Assembly: GCA_037200965.1 (NCBI GenBank)
Contig: JBBCGK010000001.1
Coordinates: 433,992 to 497,991, forward strand
Origin: a bacterium
Lineage (GTDB): Bacteria; Patescibacteriota; Minisyncoccia; Phycocordibacterales; Phycocordibacteraceae
DNA: 64,000 bases
Direction of reading: 5' to 3'
Shown here: positions 39,941-57,677 of the stretch, one piece after another
Numbering within the stretch: position 1 is the stretch's first letter
Layout of the letters: every line of letters begins with the position of its first letter
The notes under the pieces: generated by a model
Database searches by the model: none
Told to the model about the DNA's origin: nothing
The model's input: only the letters and a program-made list of their open reading frames with translations
Program-made: the position numbers and the translations under genes

Positions 39941-39948
39941 ATACCAGC

Positions 39949-40701
39949 ATGAAAAACCAATACTTTGGCGACTTGAGCGACTATAAGAAGTACGGTTTGC
40001 TGCGCACACTTTCGATTGAGGGTGAGTGCTCGCTCACTGTGTGTTGGATGCTGACGCGAGATGATCAAAGTACCGACGGGCGGCATACAACTTATTTGGC
40101 GGACGTAAGAGAATGGCGCAACCATGAGCCGTTGGTATTTGATCTACTCGCGGACGCAGTCTTCAAAAATTCCCGTAATCTCGAAATAGTTGAAAAGTCC
40201 GGACTAATACCGAACTCAAACTACTTTCGTGAGGAAATCGGCGATGCTCCCTCCCAACGGGAAGCTTTTTTTGCCCGATTGGCAGATGAAGCCCGCAATT
40301 CTGATATTGTGTTCTTGGACCCCGACAACGGCCTTGAAGTGAAGTCAGTCCCCTATGGCTCCAAGGGAGCACATAAGTACATTTATCGGTCTGAAATCGA
40401 AAAGTTATCTCGGAATGGACTTTCAATCTTGCTGTATCAACATTTTGGTCGGAAAGAACGGTCTGAGTTTATCCGAGCTATTGCATTGAAACTCATCGAT
40501 TGGCTGAATGTGGAGGAAGTATTTTCACTTCGGACGACGCATACCGTATTTTTTCTTGTGCCGAAAGCTGCCCACAGGTCGCGAATAGATCGATCCCTCC
40601 AGGCAGTAAATAGACAATGGGGAGATAAGATCTTTATCGAGATACACTCTAAGGAGTCTGTATCAACGGTTACAACGAAAAATCAGTTAGACCTACTCTA
40701 A
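39949..40701 (+). CDS. Hypothetical protein (250 aa) completing the MazG-PurZ-like cassette
   Basis: Clean ORF 8 nt after the PurZ-like stop; lower GC; no HD motif (so not obviously DatZ); unknown function. Confidence 0.45.
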   Translation: MKNQYFGDLSDYKKYGLLRTLSIEGECSLTVCWMLTRDDQSTDGRHTTYLADVREWRNHEPLVFDLLADAVFKNSRNLEIVEKSGLIPNSNYFREEIGDAPSQREAFFARLADEARNSDIVFLDPDNGLEVKSVPYGSKGAHKYIYRSEIEKLSRNGLSILLYQHFGRKERSEFIRAIALKLIDWLNVEEVFSLRTTHTVFFLVPKAAHRSRIDRSLQAVNRQWGDKIFIEIHSKESVSTVTTKNQLDLL

Positions 40702-40774
40702 GTAAGTGAGCAACATGGATATTGGAAAGGAGCCTGACTTCGCCTCGGATGCCTACTTTGATAATCCGCAACAA

Positions 40775-40810
40775 GTTGCACAACCTCCTTTTTACGAACG
40801 ATCCTGCAGG
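40775..40810. repeat. Array repeat R2 (36 nt, perfect)
   Basis: Exact sequence match. Confidence 0.95.
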
Positions 40811-41427
40811 ACGATATCCACAAATCACTGCTGCGCAGCGCGGGCCTCGCGCATCTCTCGGCGGATGAGATTGGGGACTTGAGGGACTTGGCAGCGCATG
40901 AGCTACGGAATGAGACCGCGGACCGCGGTGGTCTCATGGCGGGATTGCGACTGCGCCTGCAACAATGCGACACACGGCTATCACGCCTTACAGACGCGCT
41001 CCTCGACCACCTCATCGAAAAGCAGGAATACGAAGCCAAGAAGGCCGCGCTCCTGGGCGAGCGGCGCGAACTGCTAGACAAACTGGAAAGCCCGGAGGCT
41101 TCGCGTCAACCCGCCGACGGCGTGCTGCAAGCATTGGAACTGCCAGATGTCGTGGAAACACGCTACGAAATGGCTTTGCCGGACCAACGGCGCCGCATTG
41201 CGTCTGCAATCGCTTGGAACCTAACTGGTAGCGGAAAAGAGGCCGTACCTGAGCTGAAATCTCCGTACCGGGAGATCGTACAGTGGCGTCTTTCCAATCC
41301 GGTGCGCCGTAACGGGGAGCGATCGGAACCTGACATAAAGCTGCTATACGAAGCGCTCAAAGAAGTCTGCCGGCGAGAAGACAAGCCGCCGCAACGTCCC
41401 CAACGTCCTGATGTCTCCGGCATATAA
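40811..41427 (+). pseudogene. 5'-truncated ORF beginning inside repeat R2 (C-terminal ~200 aa of a larger protein; coiled-coil, possibly relaxase/recombinase-associated)
   Basis: The reading frame is open from within R2 (…CTTSFLRTILQDDIHKSLLRSAGLAHL…) with no start context. Ends overlapping the T4CP-like gene. Confidence 0.35.
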
Positions 41428-42724
41428 GGCGACATACTTTTTCGAGAATTGTCGCGCCTTATGCCGCGTGAATGTCAGGCAGATGCTGTTCTGCATGGAT
41501 GCGAGCATCAGCTACTTCGCCCGCACCAACTTCCGCAACCGAAACCAGCTCTTCGGTGTGAGGCAAGCCGACCGTCTTTCGCACCTGTACGTCATCGGCA
41601 AGACTGGCACGGGCAAGTCCACCCTCCTTGAAACCCTCGCCCGGCAAGACCTTCGGGCCGGGCGCGGCTTCGCCCTCATAGACCCGCACGGCGATCTCGT
41701 GGAACGGATCGCGAGGGACGCGCCGGAAGCCGTCTATCTGAACGCCCCCGATCCCTCCCAGCCCTTCGGCTATAATCCGCTCCGGAGGGTCAGGGACGAC
41801 AAGATACCGCTTGCCGTCTCGGGCTTCCTCGAAACCCTCAAGAAGCTCTGGCCCGACGCGTGGGGCGTGCGCATGGAGCACGTCCTTAGGAATACGCTGT
41901 ATGCGCTATTCGAGCAGGAGGATGCGCGGCTTCCCGATATCCTCCGCCTCTATGCCGACGAGACATACCGGAAGGCGCTCGCCAAGGGGATTAGGAACGA
42001 TACCGTCCGCCGCTTCTGGCTCCATGAGTTCGAGCACTTCCACTTTCGCCAGAGGGCGGACGCCGTGGCTCCGATACAAAACAAGATCGGGGCGCTCCTT
42101 GCCGACCCCACGCTCTATCGCATCCTCGTCGAGCCAAAGGAGGATATCCGCTTCCGTGCCCTCATGGACGGCGGCGGGGTTCTTCTGGTCAATCTCTCGA
42201 AGGGCAAACTTGGCGAGGACAGCTCGCACATCCTCGGCGCGCTCATCGTCTCGACCCTGGGCCTTGCTGCCTTTAGTCGGGCCGACAGTCCCCCAACCTC
42301 CCGCCGCCCTTTCTTCGTCTATATCGACGAATTCCAGTCCTTCACGACCCTTATGCTCGCCGACATGATGTCGGAGCTGCGGAAGTACGGCGTGGGCCTT
42401 ACCTTGGCGCACCAATATATGCACCAGCTTGAACCCGAGATACGGCATGCGGTTCTGGGGAACGCTGGGACGCTCATATCATTCCGTGTTGGCCCCGAGG
42501 ATGCGTCAATCCTGGCGAAGGAGTTTCAGCCGACGTTTGACACACACGATCTCCTGAACCTGCCTAACCACCATATCTATCTGAAGCTGATGATTGATGG
42601 GGTGCCGGGCGGGGCGTTTAGTGCAAATACAGTCGATCATTCGACGCGGGGAGAGACAAAGCTCGCACCGCTACGAAGGACTTCAGACTTGAATGCGGGC
42701 GAAAGCGCGTCTGACTATGTGTGA
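41411..42724 (+). CDS. FtsK/HerA-superfamily ATPase resembling type IV secretion coupling protein (TraD/TraG/VirD4-like, no TM domain)
   Basis: Walker A YVIGKTGTGKSTLLETL; Walker B FFVYIDEFQSF; C-terminal LAHQYMHQL similar to the T4CP QS..QL motif. Confidence 0.55.
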   Translation: MSPAYKATYFFENCRALCRVNVRQMLFCMDASISYFARTNFRNRNQLFGVRQADRLSHLYVIGKTGTGKSTLLETLARQDLRAGRGFALIDPHGDLVERIARDAPEAVYLNAPDPSQPFGYNPLRRVRDDKIPLAVSGFLETLKKLWPDAWGVRMEHVLRNTLYALFEQEDARLPDILRLYADETYRKALAKGIRNDTVRRFWLHEFEHFHFRQRADAVAPIQNKIGALLADPTLYRILVEPKEDIRFRALMDGGGVLLVNLSKGKLGEDSSHILGALIVSTLGLAAFSRADSPPTSRRPFFVYIDEFQSFTTLMLADMMSELRKYGVGLTLAHQYMHQLEPEIRHAVLGNAGTLISFRVGPEDASILAKEFQPTFDTHDLLNLPNHHIYLKLMIDGVPGGAFSANTVDHSTRGETKLAPLRRTSDLNAGESASDYV

Positions 42725-42859
42725 GCGGGATCACGTTTTTTTGCAGATGGCACGCCCGCGTGGGCTGTTTTGGTAATTGCCATAGCGTCTTGGCAACAAC
42801 TGGGCGTCAGTACCTGGCTTCCCTCACAGGTTGAATATATTACAGTATAGCTCAACCAT

Positions 42860-43864
42860 ATGTTGAGTCGCCGCATGCCCGGTATTACCGAATTACTTTT
42901 GAAAATCGCGCCCAAGATCGGCGCAAAAGTGCTGATCGAGCCTGAGTGGGGCTACGTCGGGCAAATCGCCTTCCGAAGCGGTCGCAAGCGGTACTTCCGG
43001 TTCTCCAGCGTTGACGTGAATACGCTGGGCGCATCGGAAGTCGCGAAGGACAAAGATTTTGCGAACTTCTTCATGAAGCACATGGGTTATCCCATCGTGA
43101 AAGGAAAAACGTTCTTCCGGGACGACTGGGCAGAGACAATCCGCTCCAAGCGAAAGATCACGGCCGCCTATCGATACGCGCGACGGCTGGGATTTCCGGT
43201 GATTGTGAAGCCTAACAGCGGCAGTCAGGGGAAAGCAGTATGCTTGGCTCGCACGAAGCGTCAATTCTATCGCGGAATGCGGGCGACCTTTGAGGTGGAC
43301 AAAGTCGCGCTTGTCCAAATACCTGTTTCAGGAAAAGACTACCGCATCGTGGTCTTGGACCGAGAAATCATTTCGGCGTACTACAGGGTTCCGCTAAGCG
43401 TCGTCGGCAATGGAAAAGCTTCCGTAGCGGCGTTGCTCAAGTCGAAGCAGAAAGAGTTTCGGCGCGCCGGGCGCGACACGGCGATCAGGGCCGACGATCC
43501 GCGCATAGCGGAAAAGCTCGAGCATCAGGGACTGAGCTTCGCTTCCGTTCTCCGAAAGGATCAAAAGGTTTTTCTTTTGGATAACGCCAACCTTTCGACG
43601 GGCGGCGAATCGGAAGACGTAACGGAAAGCGTGCACAAGGAGTTCAGGAAAATCGCGGTGTCGCTTACGAGGGATATGGGACTGCGCCTGTGCGGCGTCG
43701 ATCTCATGATAGACGGGGATATCTCGGAGCCGCCCAAAACGTATTGGGTGCTTGAAGTCAATTCGGCCCCGGGGCTCGATCATTATGCGAAAAGCGGCGC
43801 GGCACAAAACAAAATCGTCGAAAAGATGTATACGACGGTGCTTAAGAGCTTGGATCGTGACTAG
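42860..43864 (+). CDS. ATP-grasp family enzyme (RimK/cyanophycin-synthetase-like ligase)
   Basis: ...GFPVIVKPNSGSQGKAV..., ...DYRIVVLDREIISAYYR..., C-terminal ...LCGVDLMIDGD...YWVLEVNSAPGL. Confidence 0.55.
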   Translation: MLSRRMPGITELLLKIAPKIGAKVLIEPEWGYVGQIAFRSGRKRYFRFSSVDVNTLGASEVAKDKDFANFFMKHMGYPIVKGKTFFRDDWAETIRSKRKITAAYRYARRLGFPVIVKPNSGSQGKAVCLARTKRQFYRGMRATFEVDKVALVQIPVSGKDYRIVVLDREIISAYYRVPLSVVGNGKASVAALLKSKQKEFRRAGRDTAIRADDPRIAEKLEHQGLSFASVLRKDQKVFLLDNANLSTGGESEDVTESVHKEFRKIAVSLTRDMGLRLCGVDLMIDGDISEPPKTYWVLEVNSAPGLDHYAKSGAAQNKIVEKMYTTVLKSLDRD

Positions 43865-43956
43865 CTCGTGTATAGTCCATACGACCGATCTTCCTGACAC
43901 CAATAGGCATCGGCCAAATCGTGATTGCTGACCAACGTTTTGCGCCGAGCGACCGC

Positions 43957-44247
43957 CTAGTCGGGATCGTAGGGATTATTGGTATCCGTGCCATTGCGCG
44001 AGGAACCAGACGGCGAACTATACGGATCGACGCGCTTGTGACCTTGCTCGCCCGTATAGGGGTTCACGTTTGGATACGTCGAGTAATTGTTATAGGGATT
44101 GCTGTCAGGCGATGAGCGATGGTGTGGCGGAACATACGTGCCGTCCTTCCGCACATAGCCTCTGACACTGACGTCCTTCGCTGCCGCCTCAGCGCCAGTG
44201 GCCAGCAGGGTCGTGAAGACCAAAAGGGCGGCAAAAATCTTGCGCAT
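43957..44247 (-). CDS. Small secreted Pro/Tyr/Asn-rich protein
   Basis: Signal peptide MRKIFAALLVFTTLLATGAEAAA; then low-complexity PYNNYSTYPNVNPY. Confidence 0.4.
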   Translation of the reverse strand: MRKIFAALLVFTTLLATGAEAAAKDVSVRGYVRKDGTYVPPHHRSSPDSNPYNNYSTYPNVNPYTGEQGHKRVDPYSSPSGSSRNGTDTNNPYDPD

Positions 44248-44357
44248 ATTAACTCCGATCAAAAATGCGGCTCGATGCTAGTTTAGTGGCTGGCGCAGGG
44301 CCAGAGGAATAATCTTCGCAAGCGTGCGTCAGGCCACGCCCTACGGTAACGCGTCGA

Positions 44358-45341
44358 TCAGTTCGCCTCGTCGAAAATCCCATTCAGGATCGCCCCAAGC
44401 CGCACCCCTGCCGCCTGCAAGCGCTCTTCCACGATGGCGGCGCGGTCTTCCTTGTAGTTGCCGTCGGGCGCGAAGACGCGAACGGCGCCACCGGTATACG
44501 TCTCGCTGTCTTCGGAATAGCGGCAGGTGGTGCCGGAGAGCGTACAGTATCCGGTGTCGGGCGCGCGGGAGACGGTGAGCGATTCGTTGGCCCATACCAT
44601 CGGATCGAGCGACGCCTTCCACGTTGCCCGCTGCTCGTCCGTGATTTCCTTTTGAAGAACATTGCCAAACGCCTCGCGCCCAGGGCCTGCTGGCTTCGTC
44701 TGCGCGATGTGGAGATCACGCATGACTTGTTCGGGAATGCAGGTGTCCCACACGGTATGGAGCGCGGTTTTGCCGTCATAGGCGCAGCCCGAGACGCCCT
44801 TCACGCCGACGCTGTTGCCGCCGCGATCATCGGCATACGAAATGTGGAGCGGCTGGTGTATGTCGCCGAGCCAGTGCCCGAGGAATTTGAGGGCCGTGCG
44901 CTTCTTGTCGGTTGAGGCATTCGGGTCTTTGAGGATGGCGATATCGGCGGGGATGGCCGTGAAAAGGCACGTCGCCGCATTCACGCACTTGGCCTCGGGG
45001 AAGCTCGTCCAATCGCGCGGCATATTGATGAAGTGCTCCGCCCTCCGGCTGCTTTGCACATCGCCCTTCTCGTCCGGCCAGGTGCAGGCCCCGTGGAAGG
45101 TTCTCGGTATCTCCTTGCCGTCAGCGTCCTTAAGCGGGGTTTCTGAGCGGATAAGCTTGTTGACCGCCTTGCGGGCCGTCGGCGTGAGCTCCTTGTATGC
45201 GATCTCGCAGACCGCCTCGTGGCCGGTGCCGCCGAAGGCGAGGGCACCGCTCGTTGTGAGACAAAGACTGACGAAGCCACCAGCTCCAAACAGCGCAAGA
45301 AGAACCCGCCGACGTCCACCCATGTACCCGCTCCCCCTCAC
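44358..45341 (-). CDS. Secreted S1/P1-family zinc-dependent nuclease
   Basis: N-terminal signal, then the ...FGGTGHEAV... (W/GH motif) and ...LKFLGHWLGDIHQPLH... zinc-ligand motifs characteristic of S1-P1 nuclease. Confidence 0.7.
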   Translation of the reverse strand: MRGSGYMGGRRRVLLALFGAGGFVSLCLTTSGALAFGGTGHEAVCEIAYKELTPTARKAVNKLIRSETPLKDADGKEIPRTFHGACTWPDEKGDVQSSRRAEHFINMPRDWTSFPEAKCVNAATCLFTAIPADIAILKDPNASTDKKRTALKFLGHWLGDIHQPLHISYADDRGGNSVGVKGVSGCAYDGKTALHTVWDTCIPEQVMRDLHIAQTKPAGPGREAFGNVLQKEITDEQRATWKASLDPMVWANESLTVSRAPDTGYCTLSGTTCRYSEDSETYTGGAVRVFAPDGNYKEDRAAIVEERLQAAGVRLGAILNGIFDEAN

Positions 45342-45453
45342 TATTCGTGCCCAGGATGCGAGGACTCGCCCTAGCCGAAGAACGGATGATGCCCGGATGA
45401 TTTCACCCGTCCAAGAGGAATGTGCGCCTTAGACTTCGTATCGGGCCGGGCCT

Positions 45454-46359
45454 ATGCTGCTTCTATTGGTGGGGTGTTTCTCAGGGGGTATTGGCATGAC
45501 TAGCGGCACGCGAGTTTTTCCGACGCGTTCGTATCGGGCATCATTTCCCATTCATGCGCTTCTTGCCGTCTTCGCGCTTCTCGTCGCGGGTGCGTATGGC
45601 CCGGCCGGTTCGGCCTTGGCCGCGACCAGCGCGGCGTCCTTCTGCCTTGACGCATGCCCCGAGGGCGCGCCGGCAAAGAACAAGACGGTCGTGCACCATG
45701 TCTATGCGCTCAGCTCGAACCCCGACACGAAATTCGCCGATTGGGTCGCGTACAAGATCTCCAAAGCGACCATCGGGTCGAACTGTTCGCGCAAGTGGGC
45801 GAAGGACCCGGACCTAGCGGCCGGCACCACGCTCAAGCCCGCCGATTACAAGGACATCAGTGCGGCGCTCCAGTCCGACCGGGGCCATCAAGCGCCCTTG
45901 GCAAGCCTATGCGGCTCGAAGTTCAATGCCGAGGCGAACTATCTCTCGAACATCACCCCACAAAAGTCCGACCTCAATCAGGGCGCATGGGTGCGGCTCG
46001 AAACCGCCGAACGCAAGCTCATTACGGGCGGCACCGCGAAGACCGTGTATACCGTCACCGGGACGCTCTACGAAAAGAAGATGCCGCCGCTTCCCAAGGC
46101 GAGCGTCAAGCACAAAGTCCCTTCGGGCTATTGGAAGATCGTCGCCGTCGAGACGGACGACGGGATCGACGCCGTGGCGTTCGTCATGCCGCAGGATACA
46201 CCCAAAGCCGCCGATTATTGCGAAACGCGCACCACCATCGGCGACGTTGAGACGCGCTCGGGCCTCAAGTTCTTCCTCGATCTCAACGAGACCGACCGCA
46301 CGCAGCTTGAGGAGAGCGAGGCGAAGACCGGCCTCTATGAGGATTTGGGCTGCGAGTAG
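45454..46359 (+). CDS. Secreted DNA/RNA non-specific endonuclease (Serratia NucA family)
   Basis: Signal-anchor, then SDRGHQAPLAS (the DRGH catalytic motif) and downstream Asn/Glu residues. Confidence 0.7.
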   Translation: MLLLLVGCFSGGIGMTSGTRVFPTRSYRASFPIHALLAVFALLVAGAYGPAGSALAATSAASFCLDACPEGAPAKNKTVVHHVYALSSNPDTKFADWVAYKISKATIGSNCSRKWAKDPDLAAGTTLKPADYKDISAALQSDRGHQAPLASLCGSKFNAEANYLSNITPQKSDLNQGAWVRLETAERKLITGGTAKTVYTVTGTLYEKKMPPLPKASVKHKVPSGYWKIVAVETDDGIDAVAFVMPQDTPKAADYCETRTTIGDVETRSGLKFFLDLNETDRTQLEESEAKTGLYEDLGCE

Positions 46360-46381
46360 CACGAGCGCGGGAAGATACGGC

Positions 46382-46669
46382 ATGCGCAAGGCATTCATAC
46401 TGACGCTGGTGGCGTTCTCCGCACTTGCGGCAACCCCACTCATCGCGCGGACCACGGATGCGGAAGTCCGGGGACAAATGATCCGCGAGTCCATCGCAAG
46501 CTATCCCGGCAACTGCCCGTGTCCGTACAGCACGATGCGAAACGGGCGCTCCTGCGGCGGGCGAAGCGCGTACAGTCGGCCCGGCGGATATGCTCCGCTG
46601 TGCTACCCGTCTGACGTTTCGGACGATATGGTGCGCGGCTATCGAAGCACGCATGGGCTCGGGAACTGA
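46382..46669 (+). CDS. Small secreted Cys-rich protein (95 aa)
   Basis: Signal peptide MRKAFILTLVAFSALAATPLIA; 6 Cys; begins 20 nt after the nuclease stop. Confidence 0.35.
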   Translation: MRKAFILTLVAFSALAATPLIARTTDAEVRGQMIRESIASYPGNCPCPYSTMRNGRSCGGRSAYSRPGGYAPLCYPSDVSDDMVRGYRSTHGLGN

Positions 46670-46865
46670 TCGATCCGATTGATATCTGGCGAAGCGCGCA
46701 AACGCTCATCTCGCTCTATGGCGATGAGGCGGAACAGTTCGCGCTTCGCCGCGCCGCTACCCTGCTCGGCGAAGGAGACCGGGAGGGCCATGCGGCAATG
46801 GCAAGCGTTGCGGAAGCGGTGAAGAAGCTGCGGCAGGAGCGGCCCGAAAGCGGCGATGCCGTCCA

Positions 46866-47273
46866 CTAGTCGGCGTCCGGCAGCTTATCGGAAGCCTCGG
46901 CAAACTCCCGCACCAGCGCGACGATGTGCTTGCGCCGGGCGGGCGACTTGACCTGCGCGAACGCTCTCGCAAGCGCCCGCCCGTCGGCGCTCGAAAGCAG
47001 CGGCATTTCTTCCGCGAACAGTGCCGAACGGGCTTTGTCGTATGCCTCGGAAACGAAGTATTCCCAGGGCAGATCAAGCACCACCATCATCCGCAACAGC
47101 GCTTCAAGCGGCAGCCGGTTGGTTCCCTTTTCATACTTCTGCATCTGTTGGAAACTAACGCCGAGGCGCTTTCCGAGAGCGAGTTGCGACAGGCCGCGCA
47201 GCGTCCGTGCGGCAAATATCTTTTGGCCGATAATCTTATTGATCTCTGACGAACTGTGCTTGCGCGGGGCCAT
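46866..47273 (-). CDS. XRE-family (Cro/C1-type HTH) transcriptional regulator
   Basis: IGQKIFAARTLRGLSQLALGKRLGVSFQQMQKYEKGTNRLPLEAL. Confidence 0.6.
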   Translation of the reverse strand: MAPRKHSSSEINKIIGQKIFAARTLRGLSQLALGKRLGVSFQQMQKYEKGTNRLPLEALLRMMVVLDLPWEYFVSEAYDKARSALFAEEMPLLSSADGRALARAFAQVKSPARRKHIVALVREFAEASDKLPDAD

Positions 47274-47349
47274 TCTCAATCCCGTTATACTATCGATCTC
47301 GCAAATTCTATGGCGCGAAAACCCCATTGTCGCGCGCAATCTCAGCCTG

Positions 47350-48333
47350 TTACGCCTCCTTCATCCACTCCCGGTGCATGCGCTCCCATTCCGGGCGCGG
47401 CGCTTCGAACTCTTCCCGGAACCACGGCATATGCTCTGGCACGAAGACCGTCTCGCGCAGGAACGCGAGCGTCGATTTGACGGCGGGTTTTGCGGCATGC
47501 ACGCGGTTATATGAGATGTAGAGCTTGCCGGGAAGGCGAAACGCAAGCGGAAGGGCGACGAGGTCCGGGTCGCCAAGCGCGTGGTAGGTAGGTGCGAGCG
47601 CGATGCCCGCGCCAAAATGCAGGCACCGCTCGAAGAAGCTCGTCTGGTTGGTGAGGATCGACACGTTCTTGACGACGTTTCCGCCCGACCATGCGGCCCA
47701 GGATGCCGTGCGCGTCTGATACTGGGCGAGATCGAGCAACCGGTGCTCGCTAAGCGCTTCGCTCGTCTGCGGCGTCCCGTGTTTTTGCAGATAGGACTTC
47801 GACGCGAACAGGGCGTAATGGACGGTCGCGAGCGGCCTCGACACCTGATCCGAATTTCCCGGATCGTAGAAGTGGATGCGGATGTCGAAGCTGTCGCTTC
47901 GGGGCGCGGTGATGTCCTGATCGGGCGATACCTTGAGCTCAATGTTCGGATGCCGTTCGAGGAAGCTCGGCATGAACTGCGCCAGCCAGAGGCTCGCAAC
48001 CCCGTCCGCGACCAGGATGCGGCAGTCGCCTTGAACGCTGCCTCCGCTGTCCTTCGCGTCCCTGCGAAGGAGCGCAATGCATTTGCGCGCCTCAAACGCG
48101 TTCGGAAGCAGACGTTCGCCGAGGTCGGTGAGCGCGCAGCCGTCGGTGCCGCGTATGAATACGCGCCCGCCGATCCACTGTTCGAAGCTGCGCAGCCGCT
48201 TGCTCACGGTTGCCTGCGTTGATCCGAGCATCGCCGCGGCCCGCTTGATGCTGCCGCCCTCGGCGATTGCGAGAAAATAGCGGAGATCGTTCCACTGCTC
48301 GGGCGAGGGGTCATCACTATTGGAAAGTACCAT
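47350..48333 (-). CDS. LysR-family transcriptional regulator
   Basis: N-terminal HTH WNDLRYFLAIAEGGSIKRAAAMLGSTQATVSKRLRSFEQWIGGRVFIRG... plus a substrate-binding domain; divergent from the GNAT gene. Confidence 0.7.
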   Translation of the reverse strand: MVLSNSDDPSPEQWNDLRYFLAIAEGGSIKRAAAMLGSTQATVSKRLRSFEQWIGGRVFIRGTDGCALTDLGERLLPNAFEARKCIALLRRDAKDSGGSVQGDCRILVADGVASLWLAQFMPSFLERHPNIELKVSPDQDITAPRSDSFDIRIHFYDPGNSDQVSRPLATVHYALFASKSYLQKHGTPQTSEALSEHRLLDLAQYQTRTASWAAWSGGNVVKNVSILTNQTSFFERCLHFGAGIALAPTYHALGDPDLVALPLAFRLPGKLYISYNRVHAAKPAVKSTLAFLRETVFVPEHMPWFREEFEAPRPEWERMHREWMKEA

Positions 48334-48434
48334 CTTCCGTCCCTTGGCTTCCGGGCGGCGATAATCGAATGGCAATTTAAGCTCCGGCAACAAAAAAATG
48401 CATAAGGCGCCAGGCGGCGCCGTGGAGTAATTCC

Positions 48435-49601
48435 TTGGAAAAGAACGATTTTAGCGCGATACGAAGCGGTACCTACGGGCCCGAACATGCCGCAGCGCAT
48501 CCCGATGGGGGAAGCGTATGGCTGCGTCCGGCCGGGGTCGGGGATATTCCGTTTGTGCATAGCCTGACCGTCTCGGACATCTCCGCCGAAACGGCACCGG
48601 AGGAGGTTATTCGGGCTGTTCACGCCCGCAATCCCGATGCCCTGTGGCTTATCGAGCGCCAAAGAGGCGGGGAGCCACCGGCCCCTATCGGCTATTTCGG
48701 CTTCCTGCCGCTCACCGATCCCGGTCTCGACGCGCTCAAGGAAGGCGCGCTCGACCGCAAGAGCCCGCCGCTTGAGCTTGTGGCCGAGGGCGGCACGCGT
48801 CCGGCGGCGGTGTACGTGTGGGGCGTCGTGGCGCATCGCCTAGTGCGGGTCACCGCGCCGCTCCTCACCCTCGCGCTTTCGCCTTACATCGACGTTCCCT
48901 TCTACACCGTCTCCCAGACCGAAGAGGGGCTGCGCTCGGCCCGTAGGCGCGGCTTCGTGCCGGTCGATGCGCGGATCGGCGACCGGGGCGGGCTCGTGCT
49001 GCTGCCGCTTGGCAGCCTTCTTGCGCCGCCGCCAAGCAAAGTCGCGCAGCTCGACGTGATCGTGGCCTCGAACGCCGAGCACCTCATGATGTGCGCCTAT
49101 GTTCGCGGCGTGGTGTTCGGCGCGGAGCAGCTCGCCCCCTACCGCGAGGAATTCGACGGCAACGACTTCTGCGGCATCCAGCTTCTGGGGTTCGTGAACA
49201 ACGAGCCTGCGGCAGTGCTTCGCATCCGTCACTTCGCGTCATTCGCGAAATTCGAGCGGTATGCCGTGCTCGAGCGCTTCCGCAAAACGCGGATCAAGTA
49301 CGAAATCCTGGAGTTCGGAATCGAGCTGTGCCGCCGCAAGGGATACACGAAGCTCTACGCGCACTCGCAGGTGCGCCTCGTCCGCTTCTATGAGCGGTTC
49401 GGCTTTCGTCTGTGCGCCGCGCAGCGTCCGCTCGTCTTCGCGGATCACGAATACGTCGAGATCGAAGCCGACCTCGCGCCGCATCCCGAGGCGATCACGA
49501 CCGCCACCGATCCCTACGTGATCATCCGACCCGAAGGGGCGTGGGACAGGCGCGGCGTTCTTGACCAGTCAGCGGCACGGCCCGCGACTAATCCCGTCTA
49601 G
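48435..49601 (+). CDS. GNAT-family acetyltransferase (two GNAT-like halves)
   Basis: C-terminal half ...AVLRIRHF...ELCRRKGYTKLYAHSQVRLVRFYERFGF fits the acyl-CoA N-acyltransferase fold; divergently paired with LysR. Confidence 0.55.
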   Translation: MEKNDFSAIRSGTYGPEHAAAHPDGGSVWLRPAGVGDIPFVHSLTVSDISAETAPEEVIRAVHARNPDALWLIERQRGGEPPAPIGYFGFLPLTDPGLDALKEGALDRKSPPLELVAEGGTRPAAVYVWGVVAHRLVRVTAPLLTLALSPYIDVPFYTVSQTEEGLRSARRRGFVPVDARIGDRGGLVLLPLGSLLAPPPSKVAQLDVIVASNAEHLMMCAYVRGVVFGAEQLAPYREEFDGNDFCGIQLLGFVNNEPAAVLRIRHFASFAKFERYAVLERFRKTRIKYEILEFGIELCRRKGYTKLYAHSQVRLVRFYERFGFRLCAAQRPLVFADHEYVEIEADLAPHPEAITTATDPYVIIRPEGAWDRRGVLDQSAARPATNPV

Positions 49602-49603
49602 GA

Positions 49604-49840
49604 GTGCTCGACATGGCCGGAACGCTCGATTGCTTTGTCCGCCTTGTTGAACTCGACACCTGCGTGCGTGAGTTGGCACAGCGCAAGCGCGCGAATAATA
49701 GGATCAGCATATCCGATCTTGATGACGTTCTCCTGGCGCTTGCTGAAGCTCGGGAAACGATCCAGGACGACGCGTATGACGAGATGGCGAGGCGGCGAGC
49801 GATAACAACGGCGGACATAATGCAGTTCGCAAAAGATTAG
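49604..49840 (+). CDS. Small hypothetical protein (78 aa)
   Basis: ORF 2 nt after the GNAT stop; no domain. Confidence 0.25.
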   Translation: MLDMAGTLDCFVRLVELDTCVRELAQRKRANNRISISDLDDVLLALAEARETIQDDAYDEMARRRAITTADIMQFAKD

Positions 49841-50107
49841 CGAAAGCGCGCGGCTCTATTCAAAACGCGGCCTACGACAAGTTCGCAACTATTCGTCCGA
49901 CAACACTCGCCCGATAACGGATCATTCGGCAACCAGAGGATAATGAGTATATCGCGGGAGCGAAGCATAGGAGACGATGCAGTGCATAGTCCGTCATAAA
50001 TTCAACGGCGGCATCCTGATGGTAGCTGTATAACAGCGTGGTGCCGGAACTTCCCCTTGTAGCCAATACCGGGCTTCGTTACAAAGCTTCAAGGGGAGGC
50101 TATATGC

Positions 50108-51743
50108 ATGCTTAATCACACCTTTGGAGTGATCTCGCTGGGTCGTTTCCTCACTGCTATACGTCCTGCGCGTTATGCGGTCCGCTCTGCCAATCGAACA
50201 CGCTTCGGCCAAGGGCTGGTCTCGGTCCGCACCCTAGTCGTCGCTGCGTGCGTTGCAATGAGTTGGCTAGCCGCATTGCCGCAAGCCGCCATCGCGAGCA
50301 GCGTCTTGATGAGCGTGCCAGGCGAAAGCGACGTAAACTCGGCGGGTGCCTTCACATATTCACTTCCTATTGCAGTTCCGCCCGGGACTGCCCGCATCGT
50401 ACCGCGACTGTCGCTTGATTATTCCAGTCAAAGCGGCAATGGCCTCCAAGGCCTCGGCTGGTCGCTTTCCGGATTGCCGGCAATAGGAAGATGCGCGCGC
50501 ACGGTGGCGCAAGACGGCGTGCATGGCAGTGTCAATTACGACGGCAGCGACAAATTCTGCTTGGAAGGCCAGCGCCTAGTCGCCCTAAGCGGCGTCTATG
50601 GCGCGAACAATACGGAATATCGTACCGAAATAGAGAGTTTCACCAAAATTATTTCATACGGAACGGCGGGTAACGGGCCAGCCTCGTTCAAAGCGTGGAC
50701 CAAGTCCGGTCAAATCCTGGAATTCGGAAACACGGCGGATTCCCGTATCGAAGCGGTCGGCAAGACAACGGTGCGCGCGTGGGCCGTCAATAAGGTTTCC
50801 GATGCCAAAGGAAACTACGTCACGGTCGAATACACCGACGACCAAACTAACGGAGAGGCGTATCCGGTTCGGATTGATTATACCGGCAATCCCAACGCAA
50901 CGCCGGTGGTTATGCCGTACAATTCCGTGCAGTTCACATACACAACGCGCGCAGATATCACGATTGCCTATCAGGCCGGTTCGCAGCAGAAGATCACAAA
51001 ACTTCTCACCAATATTAAGACTTATCAAGCCGCGAATTTGGTTTCCGACTATCGCCTTGCCTATCAAGCCGGCTCATCGCTCGCACATTCGCGTCTAACG
51101 TCCATCACGTTATGTGATGGGTCGGGTACGCCGGTATGCCTTGCCCCCACGACCTTTGGCTGGCAGGGTGGCAGCGGTAGCCTGCCGACAATGACCGGGA
51201 CCGCATCCACTATCATTCCGACGCAAAGCGGTGATTTCAACGTTGACGGATTAACAGACCCCTTTGTCAAAGCCCCGTATTTTGGAACTCAGAGCGGAAC
51301 GTTCGTCGCGAGCGGCATGACTATAAGCTATACCGACCCCATATCGGGATTGCCGTGGTCGGGTCTAACGGCTTTCCCCAACACAATGGTCGGGTTTGTA
51401 TTGGGTGATACCGACGGAGACGGGTATAGCGACGTCACCGCGATGCGGGGTATCGCACATGGCGCTTATGCCAGGTTGGTGGTTACGCGCAACGACCAGC
51501 TCGGAAATCTTGGTCAGATCGGCCTGATCGATCCGCTGCATGCTGGCGCCATATTCAGCGGCGACTTCAATGGAGACGCGCGCACGGACGTTTTCGTGAC
51601 GGGTGTAGCTTCTTATAACAGTACGACGTATCTGAGCCTGGGGACCGGATCGTTCACCGCCATCAACATGAGTTCGGTATATGAACCCATCACGACCGCC
51701 GATTTTGATGGTGACGGATGCACCGATTTCTTGGGATCGACTA
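50108..51743 (+). pseudogene. N-terminal fragment of a Tc-toxin TcB/SpvB-like protein with FG-GAP/VCBS-type repeats, truncated by repeat R3
   Basis: SLPIAVPPGTARIVPRLSLDYSSQSGNGLQGLGWSL (SpvB N-terminal signature); GDFNGDARTD, DFDGDGCTD repeats. The ORF runs without a stop into R3 and then into nonsense. Confidence 0.6.
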
Positions 51744-51779
51744 GTTGCACAACCTCCTTTTTACGAACGATCCTGCAGG
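51744..51779. repeat. Array repeat R3 (36 nt, perfect); truncates the SpvB-like gene
   Basis: Exact sequence match; translated in frame as CTTSFLRTILQ at the end of ORF 50108. Confidence 0.95.
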
Positions 51780-51793
51780 TTTCCGTTAATCTT

Positions 51794-53134
51794 CTAAGTC
51801 TCTTGTTGAGACGCAACACAGCCCCACGCCGCTTTTACCGAGTCATAGATAAAGCCTACCGTCAGAACCTTGGATATAACCGTCGTGGTTGGCAACGCCG
51901 TGCCTTCTGCCACGAACGACGCCCCCCAGGTAATCGCCCGGGCCGTACCGTCGTCTTTGATCCTGAAGATGAGCGTCTGGAAGTTCGTGGGTGTACCGGA
52001 GAGATTTGTCGTCATCGACGTGATCGCGGTCGCAAGAGCAGTAATCGTCACGGCGTCGCACCCATCGCTATTCACTGTAGGGGTTGCCGAAGAAACAATC
52101 GTCGTTATGCGTGGAGTATTTCTCTTATTTGCAAGAGTCTGTGTACCATTGTTAGTCACGACACTGTCAGCGTTTGTGCCTGCAACCGAGATTCTCAAAT
52201 CTCCTGTTCCAACGGTAAGCACTCCTGAGGTGTGCGTTGCAACCCAGTTACCGTTACTAATGTTCCAGGTAAAACCAGTAGCACTAAAGAGATCGGCCCA
52301 TCCAAGCGCGGTCGTCCCAAGAGCGGCAATATCATTCGTGACCGGGGAAAGAGCGGAGGAGGTAAGTTGTATCGTTCCTGTTCCGTTGATAGCCAGACCA
52401 AGCGTATTGGTTGTAGGAAGGTAGAGGCGATTACCGGTAGCAGTTGAAGAGGTAGGAGCAAAGCCAGCCGCAGTTGCCAGCGATGCCAACGTCAAAGCTC
52501 CGGCGTCGGTCAAGGTTGCATTGGTGGATGTTGCTTGTGCGCCGCGCGAAGTACCATCGGACCGAAGTATAGATTCATCTGTGGCAAAAGTGGCGGCAGC
52601 GGTGACTACATTACTCGGTATATCGCTTGTAAGAGCGACGGTACCCGTGGACGCCGGAAGGGTAATGGTGTTAGTTCCAGCGATTGCCGTAGGGACGAGG
52701 GCGATGGTACCGGAAGTTGAACCCGAGAAGGTTACACCCTGGGTACCGGAAATGATGCCAGTGGTGTCAGCAATAAGCACTGCCGAGTTCTGGATCAGCT
52801 TACCAGTGGTAGTGTCGAAGCGGGCCACGGCGTTATCAGTTGCTGAAGCCGGGCCTACAACATAGGTAGCAAGGGAAGCAGTCGTAGGAATAACATAGCC
52901 GCTTTGGAGCGCTATAGCGATCGTTCCGGAAGTAGTGATCGGTACGCCGGATACCGTAAGTCCTGTCGGTACCGTAGCGTCAACGGATGTAACCGTACCT
53001 CCTCCTCCGGGGAGGTCTATAAGAAGCCTGTGCGTCGTCGGGTCTGCATATAGACGCACAGGCGTCTTGCCGTCAGCGCTTGAAGCTGCTATCAGCGTTG
53101 GAACATCGTTCTGGTCTCGGTAAGCATCAGCCAT
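51794..53134 (-). CDS. Thr/Ser/Gly-rich beta-repeat protein resembling a phage tail fibre/adhesin
   Basis: 446 aa; N-terminus ...IAASSADGKTPVRLYADP...; low-complexity T-rich repeats (…TSGTIALVPTAIAGTNTITLPASTGTVALTS…). Confidence 0.45.
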   Translation of the reverse strand: MADAYRDQNDVPTLIAASSADGKTPVRLYADPTTHRLLIDLPGGGGTVTSVDATVPTGLTVSGVPITTSGTIAIALQSGYVIPTTASLATYVVGPASATDNAVARFDTTTGKLIQNSAVLIADTTGIISGTQGVTFSGSTSGTIALVPTAIAGTNTITLPASTGTVALTSDIPSNVVTAAATFATDESILRSDGTSRGAQATSTNATLTDAGALTLASLATAAGFAPTSSTATGNRLYLPTTNTLGLAINGTGTIQLTSSALSPVTNDIAALGTTALGWADLFSATGFTWNISNGNWVATHTSGVLTVGTGDLRISVAGTNADSVVTNNGTQTLANKRNTPRITTIVSSATPTVNSDGCDAVTITALATAITSMTTNLSGTPTNFQTLIFRIKDDGTARAITWGASFVAEGTALPTTTVISKVLTVGFIYDSVKAAWGCVASQQET

Positions 53135-53136
53135 AA

Positions 53137-53298
53137 TCAGGTACTTTGTACGAGTAATTCCCCGGCACTATTGGCGTAGAGCACCACAGGCGTCTTGCCG
53201 TCAGCGCTTGAGACAGCCATGAGTGCAGGAACAAAGTTTGCGTCCCGCAGATCGTCTACCGGCCCAAAGTCCGACCCGGTAGTGTCGTCGTCCGCCAT
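53137..53298 (-). CDS. Short N-terminal paralog fragment of the tail-fibre-like protein, starting next to repeat R4
   Basis: ...VPALMAVSSADGKTPVVLYANSAG... mirrors the N-terminus of the 51794-53134 protein (...IAASSADGKTPVRLYADP...). Confidence 0.3.
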   Translation of the reverse strand: MADDDTTGSDFGPVDDLRDANFVPALMAVSSADGKTPVVLYANSAGELLVQST

Positions 53299-53327
53299 AA
53301 GCGCATGTGTTGAAGGGTCAGCAACGA

Positions 53328-53363
53328 GTTGCACAACCTCCTTTTTACGAACGATCCTGCAGG
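53328..53363. repeat. Array repeat R4 (36 nt, perfect)
   Basis: Exact sequence match. Confidence 0.95.
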
Positions 53364-53460
53364 AGTATGAGTACTGATACCGTCCAATCTGCCATTGAAT
53401 ATGCGCGACACTCGCCGTCGTGACGACGTTGAGTTAAGTCAATGGCGATTTATGTTACTG

Positions 53461-53982
53461 TCACCGGACCGGCACGAACCCTTCGGGAAGAAACTGCGTC
53501 GGGTCCTTCCACGGTTCAATAGCAACTGCTTTGGGGTATTTGCTTATCATGTAAGCATCGGTGCAATACACCAAACTTTCGGGATCATCGTCCGAAGGCT
53601 CAAGGCCTGAAAATTCAACCATCACAGATTTCTGGTTGGTAATTTTTCCAAAGGTGTCAATGAACCGCTTGATTTTGTCAAACTCACGCACAAAATCGTC
53701 GGGCTCAAATAGATAGGAATACACTACTACTGTATTCTCGCCGACGATCCGTTCGGAACCGTCCTCATTTTTCACGCGGAAACGCCCAGCGGCGAGCGGC
53801 AATTGGGTTACACCGCCATTGATCCGCACCATAATTTCCATGGCGCTATCGACCCATTTGTCAAAATTTTCAACAGGCTTCTGATCGCGATCTTGGTTAG
53901 GCAAATAAACTGCAAACCGTTGTACCGATTCAGATGTATCGGCACCTAGCGCGGTCTTGAGGTCAAAATCTACGAGCGCCAT
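53461..53982 (-). CDS. Hypothetical protein (173 aa), low-GC
   Basis: Clean ORF; no domain recognised. Confidence 0.45.
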   Translation of the reverse strand: MALVDFDLKTALGADTSESVQRFAVYLPNQDRDQKPVENFDKWVDSAMEIMVRINGGVTQLPLAAGRFRVKNEDGSERIVGENTVVVYSYLFEPDDFVREFDKIKRFIDTFGKITNQKSVMVEFSGLEPSDDDPESLVYCTDAYMISKYPKAVAIEPWKDPTQFLPEGFVPVR

Positions 53983-54068
53983 GATCGCTTCCTATTAGCC
54001 ATCAATGAAAAGGCCCCATAGCCGGGGCCTTAAAGTAGGCAAAATGCCAAATTGCAACGCTGATGCCG

Positions 54069-54725
54069 CTACCGCGGTCTTGAAGGTCTCCGAATTCCGA
54101 GCACCGTTTTAGGGTCCCGCTTGATCTTTAGAAACCGTCCAAATCCCGAACGAGCGTCTTCAGGTTTCTCCGCTTGTTGGGAAGCTGAACGAATCGCTGT
54201 CACTATCTCGTTAGCAGCTTCTGATATGGGCGGCAAATTTTGCCGGTTATAGTCGCCTGGCGGGATTCCCGCGTGCTTCTTTTTCATATGATTTTCTCCT
54301 GTTTCTTCACAGGGTTGCGACCCATCGGTCTCAGCCCCGTGTTGATCGGGAGAAAGCCCTTCAAGAATCGGGCCGCGTACGTCGGTTTCCCAGGTTAAGG
54401 CTTCGACGCGAATATCCTGGCCACGGTCCGTCCTTATGCTTTCGCGATGGGGACCATACCCACATAGTACCACAGCGGCATGCGTAGTCGCGCCCGAAAT
54501 CTCGTGGACTATATCCGCAGCAGCGCCAATACCAGCGCCCGTTACTATCAAGTCATAGACCATCAAGATGCGATCACCGGAAAGCGGTTTGTCTGCCGTT
54601 ATTGCTACGCCCTTCGCCCAACGCGTCTCGCGATAGATGCAGGCGGGCAATCCGGTTTCGGCGACGAGGGACGAGAGCATCGAAATCGCGCCGACCGGCC
54701 CCATCTCTTTTTCGATAAAGCACAA
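54069..54725 (-). CDS. Phosphoribosyltransferase (type I PRTase) domain protein
   Basis: ILMVYDLIVTGAGIGAAADIV is the PRPP-binding motif (VLLVDDVLTTGGT-like). Starts 13 nt from repeat R5. Confidence 0.55.
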   Translation of the reverse strand: MCFIEKEMGPVGAISMLSSLVAETGLPACIYRETRWAKGVAITADKPLSGDRILMVYDLIVTGAGIGAAADIVHEISGATTHAAVVLCGYGPHRESIRTDRGQDIRVEALTWETDVRGPILEGLSPDQHGAETDGSQPCEETGENHMKKKHAGIPPGDYNRQNLPPISEAANEIVTAIRSASQQAEKPEDARSGFGRFLKIKRDPKTVLGIRRPSRPR

Positions 54726-54738
54726 TCGCGTAATGCCG

Positions 54739-54774
54739 GTTGCACAACCTCCTTTTTACGAACGATCCTGCAGG
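54739..54774. repeat. Array repeat R5 (36 nt, perfect); truncates the patatin-like gene
   Basis: Exact sequence match; read through as SCRIVRKKEVVQ by the minus-strand ORF. Confidence 0.95.
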
Positions 54775-55372
54775 AAACCATGAGAGAACCCGAGTTGATC
54801 TCGGTGGCCACGATCTTCAAAGGCGACAACTCGTTAAATTCCTCATAGTTCAGGTCAGCGAACCGAATTCGATCAGGCACTCCATCGTGATCACGACCAT
54901 TTGCGGCATATAATTCCCGCATACGTTCTCGAAGAACTGTGTTGATGAATTCACGAATGGGCGTTGTGGTGAAAAAGCCTAAGTGCCGCCATATGCGCAG
55001 CATTCCAAACGTAACTAGGGGAGCTGTTAAAAAAGACAATAATACACCCCCCAACGCCGTAGCGGACAATGCCCATCGAAGTCCCTGGCGGAGGCGAACA
55101 AATCTACGCCAATCATCAGCCCCCAATAACGTTACGGGGGTCAAGTTATGTAGGCTGAGAATATTTTGATCCCTAATGTCGGGATTCATCAAAGTCGAAG
55201 CACTGTATCCCGCCGCGACTAGCGTTGCCACGATCGCGCCAGCTGACGCCCCGGCTACACCTACGAAGGCGAGCCCATTCTTCGCGGCACCCTCCAAAGC
55301 ACCAATATGCGCTATGCCCTTAGCACCGCCACCTTCGAATATGCCAAAGGCTGGCCTCTTAGCGTCCATCAC
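54775..55372 (-). pseudogene. Patatin-like phospholipase, 3'-truncated by repeat R5
   Basis: GIFEGGGAKGIAHIGAL (oxyanion-hole GGGxxG) and GASAGAIVA (GxSxG nucleophile). The ORF is read through R5 before the catalytic Asp (DGG) region is reached. Confidence 0.6.
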
Positions 55373-55505
55373 TGTATGTATCCTTTCGCAAATCAGGTCG
55401 GGGCCTGCACAAACGACAGAACATCGGACAGGCTGGTGAAATAATGAGATACCAGCCTTCGCACATTGCTGTTCCGCATACAGATACAGCAGTTGCTAGT
55501 TCAAA

Positions 55506-57077: not shown

Positions 57078-57538
57078 ACTGTGAACGGGATACGCCGACG
57101 GTCAGGAGAAATCTGGTTGGCTTGTTCTCGACTTTCAATTGCCTTGAGCATTGGCGAAAGACGCTTAGCGACTTGCGCAGTAAGATCAGTTCTGGAGGCC
57201 GTCGCCTTGGACTTGGGCCGTGCAGAACTCTTCGTCTTTTTGTGACGCATAGCGCAACCTCCAATTTCGGTGAGCAGGATGTTGCCCTCAGTTCCAGCCC
57301 GGCGGGTATAAACTCCAACACGGGGATCAAAATCAAGCTCATGGACTTGACTTCCTGGAACGGGGCCGCCTAGGGCTCCCCTGTAACGAATCAGCCCTGT
57401 TCTTAACGTACCACGAGCGCCTTCGTATCCCCAATATTTTGTATGTGGATAATCCACCAACACAAGTTCTTTGAATGGTGAGGCTGGCCGTTGCCTTTCC
57501 TCAGTGGCGTCGCCGTCCGTTGACCCAATCGCCTGCAT
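57074..57538 (-). CDS. Hypothetical protein (154 aa)
   Basis: 4-nt overlap with the downstream 523-aa gene; no domain. Confidence 0.3.
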   Translation of the reverse strand: MQAIGSTDGDATEERQRPASPFKELVLVDYPHTKYWGYEGARGTLRTGLIRYRGALGGPVPGSQVHELDFDPRVGVYTRRAGTEGNILLTEIGGCAMRHKKTKSSARPKSKATASRTDLTAQVAKRLSPMLKAIESREQANQISPDRRRIPFTV

Positions 57539-57677
57539 AACAATTTAATGCCTTCCTTCTGGCAGCAGACCACTAGGAGCGGCAGACGGCCGTTCATTAT
57601 CAGCGTGGATCATTGGCTGGACCGAGCCCCAATCGGTGACTGATTCGTACGGCTAAAGACCGCTCGGGTCAACTAAG

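Follow-up and report, generated by a model that had tools for sequence, protein, structure and literature searches.

In the canonical adaptation module of CRISPR systems, an array of repeats borders the cas genes on one side and its spacers are uniform, about 35-40 nt in length; this fixed length, for which a Cas1-Cas2 ruler is held responsible, counts among the features that define adaptation. Casposases, which are homologs of Cas1, integrate kilobases of DNA and duplicate their target, and the chemistry of Cas1 is not intrinsically tied to short substrates. Integrons keep complete, promoterless open reading frames (ORFs) as cassettes. In genomes from the candidate phyla radiation (CPR, or Patescibacteria), 'partial cas operons' have been described and interpreted as remnants subject to negative selection (Burstein et al. 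2016, PMC4742961). Here, we report the analysis of a 64,000-nt window of a CPR genome (GenBank assembly GCA_037200965.1, contig JBBCGK010000001.1, positions 433,992 to 497,991) in which six copies of a 36-nt repeat next to a cas1-cas2 pair enclose five long inserts. We consider it likely that positions 38559-59094 of this window are a CRISPR-type adaptation locus, with kilobase pieces of foreign double-stranded DNA held as spacers through ruler-free integration by Cas1-Cas2.

The locus resembles the canonical adaptation module in combining a Cas1 with an intact active site, a Cas2, a short leader and identical repeats of 36-37 nt (CCTGCA...TTGTGCAAC), in the position of the array on one side of the cas genes, in having foreign inserts with an identifiable protospacer (spacer A), and in a difference between strains that begins directly after the first repeat. 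It is unlike the canonical module in that the spacers, here and in the related loci described below, vary from 140 to 10933 nt and contain whole as well as cut genes, in that the arrays are short (1-8 repeats), and in the absence of Cas4, the lack of any effector genes found, the leader of only about 30 nt and the strongly divergent Cas2. Thus, among the features by which CRISPR systems are recognized, Cas1, Cas2, a repeat with its leader and a foreign spacer are present, whereas the spacers are neither short nor uniform, and no effector module was found in the sequence inspected.

The six direct repeats, GTTGCACAACCTCCTTTTTACGAACGATCCTGCAGG, span positions 38559-57713, show no mismatches to each other and all lie on the minus strand; read in the direction of the cas genes, the sequence is CCTGCAGGATCGTTCGTAAAAAGGAGGTTGTGCAAC. 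The leader-proximal copy, R6 (57678-57713), is separated from the stop codon of cas2 by a 32-nt leader (57714-57745), and 16 nt separate the leader-distal copy, R1 (38559-38594), from the tatD start codon. The remaining copies are R2 (40775-40810), R3 (51744-51779), R4 (53328-53363) and R5 (54739-54774). A control with shuffled sequence gave no matches to the repeat, in line with a chance expectation of none, and the flanks of the six copies have no similarity to one another. The cas-sense strand of the repeat folds at -10 kcal/mol; covariation in the predicted hairpin across 44 family repeats did not exceed that in shuffled alignments (90/500), which gives the hairpin no significant support. 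A scan of the array for promoters and terminators yielded counts no higher than in shuffled sequence.

The five inserts differ widely in size and content. Spacer A (38595-40774, 2180 nt) carries a MazG-domain fragment, a PurA-like gene, an ORF of 250 aa and the beginning (20 codons) of a P450 gene. Spacer B (40811-51743, 10933 nt) carries the tail of a serine recombinase, a HerA/TrwB-like ATPase, an ATP-grasp protein, an S1/P1 nuclease, a NucA-type nuclease, a helix-turn-helix (HTH) protein, a LysR and a GNAT protein, and a truncated SpvB-like gene. Spacer C (51780-53327, 1548 nt) encodes a phage-type protein of 446 aa (51794-53134, minus strand); spacer D (53364-54738, 1375 nt) encodes a 173-aa ORF and a phosphoribosyltransferase (PRTase)-like ORF that is open into R5; and spacer E (54775-57677, 2903 nt) encodes ORFs of 154 and 523 aa and a 3'-truncated patatin.

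The cas1-cas2 pair comprises the only genes linked to the array. The cas1 gene (58039-59094, minus strand) encodes an adaptation-module integrase of 351 aa that scores 221 bits against TIGR00287 (E=1.4e-65; cutoff 71.7 bits) and whose best matches in the PDB are CRISPR Cas1 proteins (7cr6, 1.8e-31; 4n06). The motifs GLEG, GLDPYLGLYH and LDLVEEFR are conserved relative to solved Cas1 structures, and residues E181, H241, D253 and E256 are invariant in a family alignment with 26 relatives (A2). The closest Cas1 proteins come from metagenome-assembled genomes (MAGs) of Kaiserbacteria, Paceibacterota and Parcubacteria. The cas2 gene (57746-58042, minus strand), which overlaps the stop codon of cas1, encodes a divergent protein of 98 aa. 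As a single sequence, it matches Pfam CRISPR_Cas2 weakly, below the gathering score (E=0.0034); a profile built from 20 family members matched only Cas2 chains in the PDB, with a best E value of 3.7e-4. Cas2 proteins of this clade lack the canonical N-terminal YD and have WxTRN, CxxC and an FEIV tail instead; W12, N16, C73 and C76 (the CxxC motif) and the C-terminal FEIV-like motif are nearly invariant across the 20 sequences. This Cas2 is a candidate for the lost ruler and, as such, a candidate determinant of the altered spacer length. Cas4 is absent from the locus. No genes for the effectors Cas3, Cascade, Cas9, Cas10, Cas12 or Cas13 were detected within the 64-kb window, and none were annotated within up to 10 kb to the left or right of cas1 in the six related loci for which gene calls exist (L002-L007).

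Of the ten ends of the segments, at least five fall inside genes; full-length homologs or the donor sequence allowed these cuts to be located. The sequence-only reading had proposed that R3 truncates an SpvB-like gene, with nonsense following the junction, and that R5 interrupts a patatin-like gene ahead of its catalytic Asp. The search that it had suggested, for full-length homologs of these two ORFs and of the ORF next to R2, gave truncation points that fit the repeats in all three cases. Residues 42-542 of the ORF at 50108-52228 align with residues 38-543 of two proteins of 940 and 938 aa (P0135 and P0178, respectively); the alignment stops at '...DFDGDGCTDFL', three codons ahead of R3, and the remainder of the ORF has no homology, as the claim of nonsense implied. 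The genuine fragment is an SpvB/FG-GAP Tc-toxin-like sequence of 545 codons (50108-51743, plus strand), 3'-truncated by R3. Its full-length homologs are proteobacterial proteins of about 890-950 aa with 45-50% identity that contain TcdB_toxin_midN, so that some 400 C-terminal residues, including further FG-GAP repeats and TcdB_toxin_midN, are gone. The patatin-like fragment (54775-55372, minus strand) consists of the first 199 codons and corresponds to positions 2-118 of the 191 in the Pfam Patatin profile: GGGAKG and GASAG are retained, the DGA/DGG motif with the catalytic Asp is absent, and the last residues, '...ATEINSGSLMV', are followed by residues encoded by the repeat.

For the ORF that follows R2, the proposed 5' truncation stands, but the reason originally given for it, the lack of a start codon, does not, since the frame contains alternative starts (TTG at 40879, and 40936 as the start of the NCBI gene call). 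It is homology that shows the truncation: read from the junction, 40813-41427 (plus strand) matches residues 314-502 of 525-aa proteins (P0243), and similar matches were obtained to relatives of 518-543 aa with Resolvase, Recombinase and Zn_ribbon_recom domains. What remains is the C-terminal portion, about 200 codons, of a large serine recombinase that has lost about 313 N-terminal codons; the catalytic, recombinase and zinc-ribbon domains are absent. Two further cuts, not listed in the sequence-only reading, are documented by the donor sequence described below: the first base of spacer A falls at codon 193 of a kinase+MazG gene of 297 aa, and at its other end the spacer includes no more than 20 codons of a P450 gene whose full length is 402 aa. 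The PRTase-like ORF on the R5 side of spacer D is probably 5'-truncated as well, with about 60 N-terminal residues gone, to judge from the position of its phosphoribosyl pyrophosphate-binding motif at residues 52-65, compared with 115-128 in adenine phosphoribosyltransferase; the underlying match is weak (E=0.006).

The origin of one insert could be traced exactly. The PurA-like protein of spacer A is also encoded on JBBCBH010010880.1, a 4,003,360-bp contig of another bacterium from the same PacBio HiFi deadwood metagenome. Spacer A matches this contig perfectly, over 2180 of 2180 nt, at positions 2042936-2045115 of that contig (5687-7866 of the extracted locus L117). In the donor, the 297-aa gene for a nucleotide kinase fused to MazG and the 402-aa P450 gene are both intact, and the 36-nt repeat does not occur anywhere in the 13 kb of the donor locus; the CPR copy is therefore a sub-fragment of the DNA of another organism, bounded by nothing but the repeats. 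The ends of spacer A are clean, with no features of transposons or insertion sequences (IS). The donor stretch belongs to an island that also encodes an integrase, AlpA and a TrwB-type coupling protein. No close named relatives of the donor P450 were found. Exact-protein look-ups for donors of spacers B, C, D and E returned only contigs and unitigs of the array itself, and neither the plasmids of PLSDB nor the phages of INPHARED contained a megablast match to the array as a whole.

Composition and gene relationships likewise point outside the host. The tetranucleotide signatures of spacers A, B, C and E are less host-like than that of every size-matched host piece in the window, with correlations to the host of 0.27 for C, 0.50 for E and 0.81 for B, the last being below all 10.9-kb host chunks. 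The 446-aa protein of spacer C matches phrog_3030 (E=9.5e-23) and has 379 relatives in IMG/VR viral contigs; for the 523-aa protein of spacer E, no viral relatives were found. The LysR, GNAT, Tc-toxin and type IV coupling protein/HerA-like genes of spacer B have relatives that are proteobacterial or borne by phages and plasmids.

These data bear on two alternative accounts of the array. If the 36-nt repeat were a mobile element, of the kind of miniature inverted-repeat transposable elements or repetitive extragenic palindromic sequences, that had inserted repeatedly into native CPR DNA and split resident genes, the identity of the copies would fit a recent spread. The halves of the split genes should then face each other across the repeats, but they do not: the SpvB-like fragment, for example, is followed across R3 by unrelated phage-type DNA. 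Furthermore, the repeats occur in a single orientation, at a single locus and always downstream of cas2, the inserts are foreign in composition, and spacer A is a piece of another organism's intact genes. We assign this explanation a negligible probability. Slightly better, yet still very unlikely, is site-specific recombination of the integron type, in which the 36-nt repeat would be an attC- or dif-like site at which a tyrosine or serine recombinase inserts circularized cassettes. Ordered, gene-sized segments between direct repeats are what such a system would produce, and fragments of recombinases do occur, a serine recombinase in spacer B and a Phage_integrase fragment in a spacer of the related locus L005. 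These recombinase ORFs are, however, truncated cargo, no intact recombinase is linked to the array, and its sole conserved neighbors are cas1 and cas2. Genes are cut at both ends of cassettes, the repeat is homologous to those of bona fide CRISPR, and the absence of a repeat copy within 13 kb of the donor sequence leaves no site with which to recombine.

Several properties of the captured genes can be described in their own right. The trio in the donor island (window 38604-40701; L117 5111-7793) combines the kinase+MazG fusion, the PurA-like enzyme and a conserved 250-aa protein of unknown function, a nucleotide-metabolism set that resembles, without matching, the Z-genome clusters of phages (PurZ/MazZ/DatZ). 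The identification of spacer A as a phage PurZ module was rejected: the enzyme scores 219 bits with the PurZ model, under its cutoff of 300, compared with 361.8 bits for archaeal-type PurA (PRK04293), and it is a short, archaeal-type protein that falls just under the cutoff of the latter model. In spacer B, the S1/P1 nuclease (minus strand) and the NucA/Endonuclease_NS nuclease (plus strand) are adjacent and divergently oriented (44358-46359); if expressed, this pair could be useful to a nucleotide-scavenging CPR cell. In spacer C, positions 53046-53119 and 53174-53247 are 74% identical DNA; the match is between the first 25 or so codons of the 446-aa gene and part of a 62-codon ORF that extends from the R4 junction to just upstream of that gene and is either a cut paralog or a separate small gene.

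A chain of unrelated contigs joined through a shared 36-nt sequence could, in principle, mimic such an array, and two circumstances call for attention in this regard. The window is a wrapped representation of the circular 960,259-bp contig JBBCBH010010897.1, whose ends meet within spacer B at 46708|46709, and short-read contigs of relatives often end at the repeat. The underlying data, however, are a hifiasm-meta assembly of PacBio HiFi reads from deadwood, with a mean read length of 18.3 kb, and Logan unitig L128 (HiFi run SRR28211700) runs from 42578 to 49173 with 100% identity; because it crosses the wrap point, the contig is circular and spacer B is contiguous. L128 itself ends inside spacer B at both of these positions, which hints that other sequences in the sample, possibly the donor or a variant, share part of B. 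An independent assembly, GCA_015655515.1, reproduces, with an unchanged order and 99.9-100% identity, cas1-cas2, spacers E, D and C and the initial ~4.4 kb of B. In a third, GCA_015689235.1, a 6.6-kb contig carries six genes of spacer B, from the 163-aa ORF to Endonuclease_NS, in the order of the window, with a seventh gene, encoding a 131-aa product, at the place of the HTH gene; this comparison concerns gene order, an exact match being at hand for the Endonuclease_NS protein only. In two runs of the Sequence Read Archive (SRA), individual Logan unitigs coincide with single spacers and end within the repeats: L120 is exactly spacer A, L125 and L126 equal spacer D, L121 is spacer C with 28 nt of each repeat, and L001 breaks inside R6. 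The same architecture is found in more than 20 unrelated assemblies, including the complete chromosome OY969557.1. Mis-assembly, which we would credit with next to no probability, can be excluded for practical purposes.

The locus is one of many. An exact scan for the repeat in genome and metagenome contigs gave no matches, and relatives were found through Cas1 instead: 392 protein clusters were recovered at E<=1e-30, and 109 related loci were fetched with Cas1 as the probe. All loci that have a Cas1 with at least about 40% identity and offer enough sequence contain cas1, cas2, a leader of about 30 nt and a 37-nt repeat, CCTGCAnnnnnnnGTCGCAAAAAGGAnATTGTGCAAC. The length of the leader and its 3' end (...GGCT|CCTGCA in the relatives) are conserved over about 50 loci, and the arrays are always located downstream of cas2, on the same strand, with 1-8 repeats each. 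Once redundancy is removed, the loci with two or more repeats amount to 20 arrays, which together contain 39 true spacers; their lengths run from 140 to 10933 nt, with a median of 1473, and no spacer of 30-40 nt is among them. The spacers of the Kaiserbacteria locus L005, for instance, measure 1332, 1379, 1340 and 2377 nt; eight repeats occur on OY969557.1 (L020), a complete chromosome of 876 kb. The family is distributed among Patescibacteria and FCPU426. Genes are cut in these arrays, too: a 386-nt spacer in L020 covers positions 57-134 of the NDK profile, that is, a fragment of ndk, a 673-nt spacer in L022 is an internal TPR fragment, and in L034 an NHL propeller runs into the repeat.

More distant Cas1 proteins, with at most 39% identity (Methanospirillum, Methanocalculus, Bacteroidales and others), are found beside normal arrays with a period of 72-78 nt. 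The 37-nt repeats of such outgroup arrays (CTTGCA...AAAACAAGGAnTGCAAC in L042, L046 and L048) are recognizably related to those of the giant-spacer loci. In a neighbor-joining tree of Cas1, the giant-spacer loci form one clade, and every array with the 72-78-nt period falls outside it.

The clade weighs against the most serious competing explanation, namely, that a normal CRISPR array has decayed, with loss of the interference genes, and that the long stretches are secondary, caused by insertions of mobile elements, rearrangements between repeats and deletions. That the loci hold only cas1-cas2, the pattern earlier read as 'partial cas operons' in CPR (PMC4742961), is compatible with this scenario, as is the presence, in some relatives, of rearranged cas1 fragments beside repeats. 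Under decay, though, some spacers of normal size would be expected, and 0 of the 39 spacers in the 20 arrays are in the 30-40-nt range; each insert lies exactly between intact, identical repeats; the catalytic residues of Cas1, the leader and the repeat are conserved over a large clade (the 392 clusters); the trait is clade-wide and monophyletic; and spacer A, with no transposon or IS features, matches the interior of its donor exactly. Decay therefore appears improbable to us, and very probably the CPR 'partial cas operons' of PMC4742961 are the same kind of loci, that is, cas1-cas2 without effectors in Parcubacteria-type genomes. As array finders cap the length of spacers, repeats separated by kilobases would be missed.

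A comparison of two samples captures what would look like acquisition at the leader-proximal repeat. Loci L004 and L002 are 100% identical for 4279 nt, a stretch that closes with the final base of the first repeat, beyond which they part: L002 continues into flanking sequence, and L004 into foreign DNA of 69% GC. The ends of the spacers carry a slight signal of their own, the 3'-terminal base on either strand being A in 33 of 78 cases against a background of 24.8% (binomial p=5e-4). This preference is weak and, with a single donor available, says nothing on a protospacer adjacent motif; it may reflect selection of ends by the integrase or by the nuclease that makes the fragments.

The locus is neither a casposon nor an integron. 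With casposons, it shares a Cas1-family integrase and, as presumed here, the insertion of kilobase-scale DNA with duplication of the target. Its Cas1, however, is closer to CRISPR Cas1 than to the casposase (6opm, 7.6e-20, against 1.8e-31 for 7cr6); Cas2 is present, and PolB and terminal inverted repeats are absent; the cargo is arbitrary foreign DNA rather than the element itself, and the target is a CRISPR repeat beside a leader. With integrons, it has in common that captured DNA pieces of gene size are kept in order on one side of the gene for the presumed capture enzyme. In contrast to integrons, the locus lacks IntI, the repeat differs from the imperfect palindromes of the attC type, the segments start and stop inside genes, and the donor of spacer A carries no recombination site. 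The sequence-only reading had set aside integron cassettes and transposition, a judgment borne out by the lack of an integron integrase, of attC-like structure and of transposon-like ends. Its positive proposal, integration of linear foreign fragments as in spacer acquisition, has gained support from the cas genes, the kinship of the repeats, the donor, the composition, the viral relatives and the clade.

From the sequences we infer a Cas1-Cas2 that would catalyze the insertions, along with their polarity, the source of the fragments and a biological role, as follows. The divergent Cas1-Cas2 would join both 3'-OH ends of any available fragment to the borders of the leader-proximal repeat, and gap repair would then duplicate the repeat, so that each insert becomes bracketed by identical copies. 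The chemistry would be that of normal spacer acquisition, or of casposon integration, minus the ruler for prespacer length; since casposases do likewise, integration of long DNA by Cas1-Cas2 is plausible. The ends of the fragments would be set by breakage and not by gene boundaries, hence the segment borders inside genes. The fragments would come from the mobile elements and phages of neighboring bacteria, possibly including the host of the epibiont. As no interference genes were found with the module, classical immunity guided by CRISPR RNA would not be what the captured DNA serves. Most likely, the stored DNA is either raw material for gene gain or a memory based on long RNA or homology. Of these, we favor promiscuous DNA capture that can feed gene gain by a cell with a reduced genome; the memory, based on long RNA or homology, is a possible role, and the captured DNA might even be a non-adaptive by-product. 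We suggest, only tentatively and with more doubt than confidence, that the entire Patescibacteria/FCPU426 clade of Cas1-Cas2 has exchanged its immune role for the capture, with no restriction on length, of DNA from the environment or the host; the system would then be a functional analog of integrons, driven by Cas1, that writes kilobase pieces of neighbors' genomes, mobile elements and phages into a chromosomal array.

Several observations count against integration of long DNA by Cas1-Cas2 as the origin of this array. Characterized Cas1-Cas2 complexes measure prespacers of about 30-40 bp. A donor was identified for one of the five spacers, A only, and the inspection of this genome for effectors covered 64 kb of 960 kb. 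All six copies of the repeat are identical, and the distal R1 is not degenerate, which is unusual for an old array. No polymorphism at the leader end was seen in the population of this organism, the second assembly having the same spacers. Open frames of at least 100 codons run into 22% of the junctions compared with 35% of random internal positions, so that the segment ends may be not fully random with respect to genes; this test is noisy in GC-rich DNA, and its outcome is compatible with gene-blind cutting. Finally, in L034, L081 and L110, and in multi-copy modules of an FCPU426 MAG, repeats abut fragments of cas1, an arrangement that simple capture at the leader end does not explain. In L034, the repeat at 9966-10002 is followed by cas1 residues 112-346; residues 1-250 precede the repeat at 2230-2266 of L081, and residues 1-115 precede that at 6093-6129 of L110. 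These pieces of cas1 behave as spacer content or as integration targets.

A clade that inserts pieces of 0.14-11 kb would show that the ruler can be lost. If the capture of long DNA by Cas1-Cas2 is real, the locus would be a bridge between spacer acquisition and casposon transposition that bears on the origin of adaptation from a transposase. The 'partial cas operons' of CPR thereby receive a concrete, testable function. If the repurposing of the clade suggested above is true, it would be a previously unrecognized route of horizontal gene acquisition in episymbionts with reduced genomes, and the mega-spacers would be a readable record of the organisms that CPR bacteria feed on, here the 4.0-Mb bacterium represented by JBBCBH010010880.1, and those with unique donor matches could tie episymbionts to their hosts or neighbors from metagenomes alone. 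A compact two-protein integrase that writes kilobases of DNA at a 36-nt site would also be of technological interest. Our literature searches, which left subscription journals mostly uncovered so that an earlier description is possible, found no account of kilobase spacers, and the source paper of the deadwood metagenome does not mention CRISPR.

The cas1-cas2 module itself may be mobile. In L002, and also in L003, an exact 18-nt duplication, AGGGAGTATGAGCGGGAT, at 9969-9986 and 11419-11436 of L002 flanks the whole unit of cas1, cas2, leader and single repeat. Found in these two loci only, it resembles a target-site duplication and suggests that the module was perhaps inserted as a unit. The non-CPR MAG MFD05512.bin.1.167 (L022, L026, L032 and L034) contains at least four cas1-cas2-leader-repeat modules with 99.7-100% identity, two of which share a contig at a distance of 12 kb; L024, L025 and L040 are loci from FCPU426 MAGs. 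The module thus seems to multiply or move within a genome.

On the far side of the array, R1 adjoins tatD (37727-38542, minus strand), near rpsF-ssb-rpsR, efp and recA, and beyond cas1 lie metG, a permease gene and glyS. The host is a CPR bacterium, and, as is typical of this group, its 16S rRNA gene is unlinked from the 23S-5S genes. The 16S gene (1-2093) is split by an insertion with a LAGLIDADG ORF (740-1483), and the 23S region (14762-20235) contains a group I intron at 16313-16529 and LAGLIDADG ORFs at 15323-15778 and 17187-17726.

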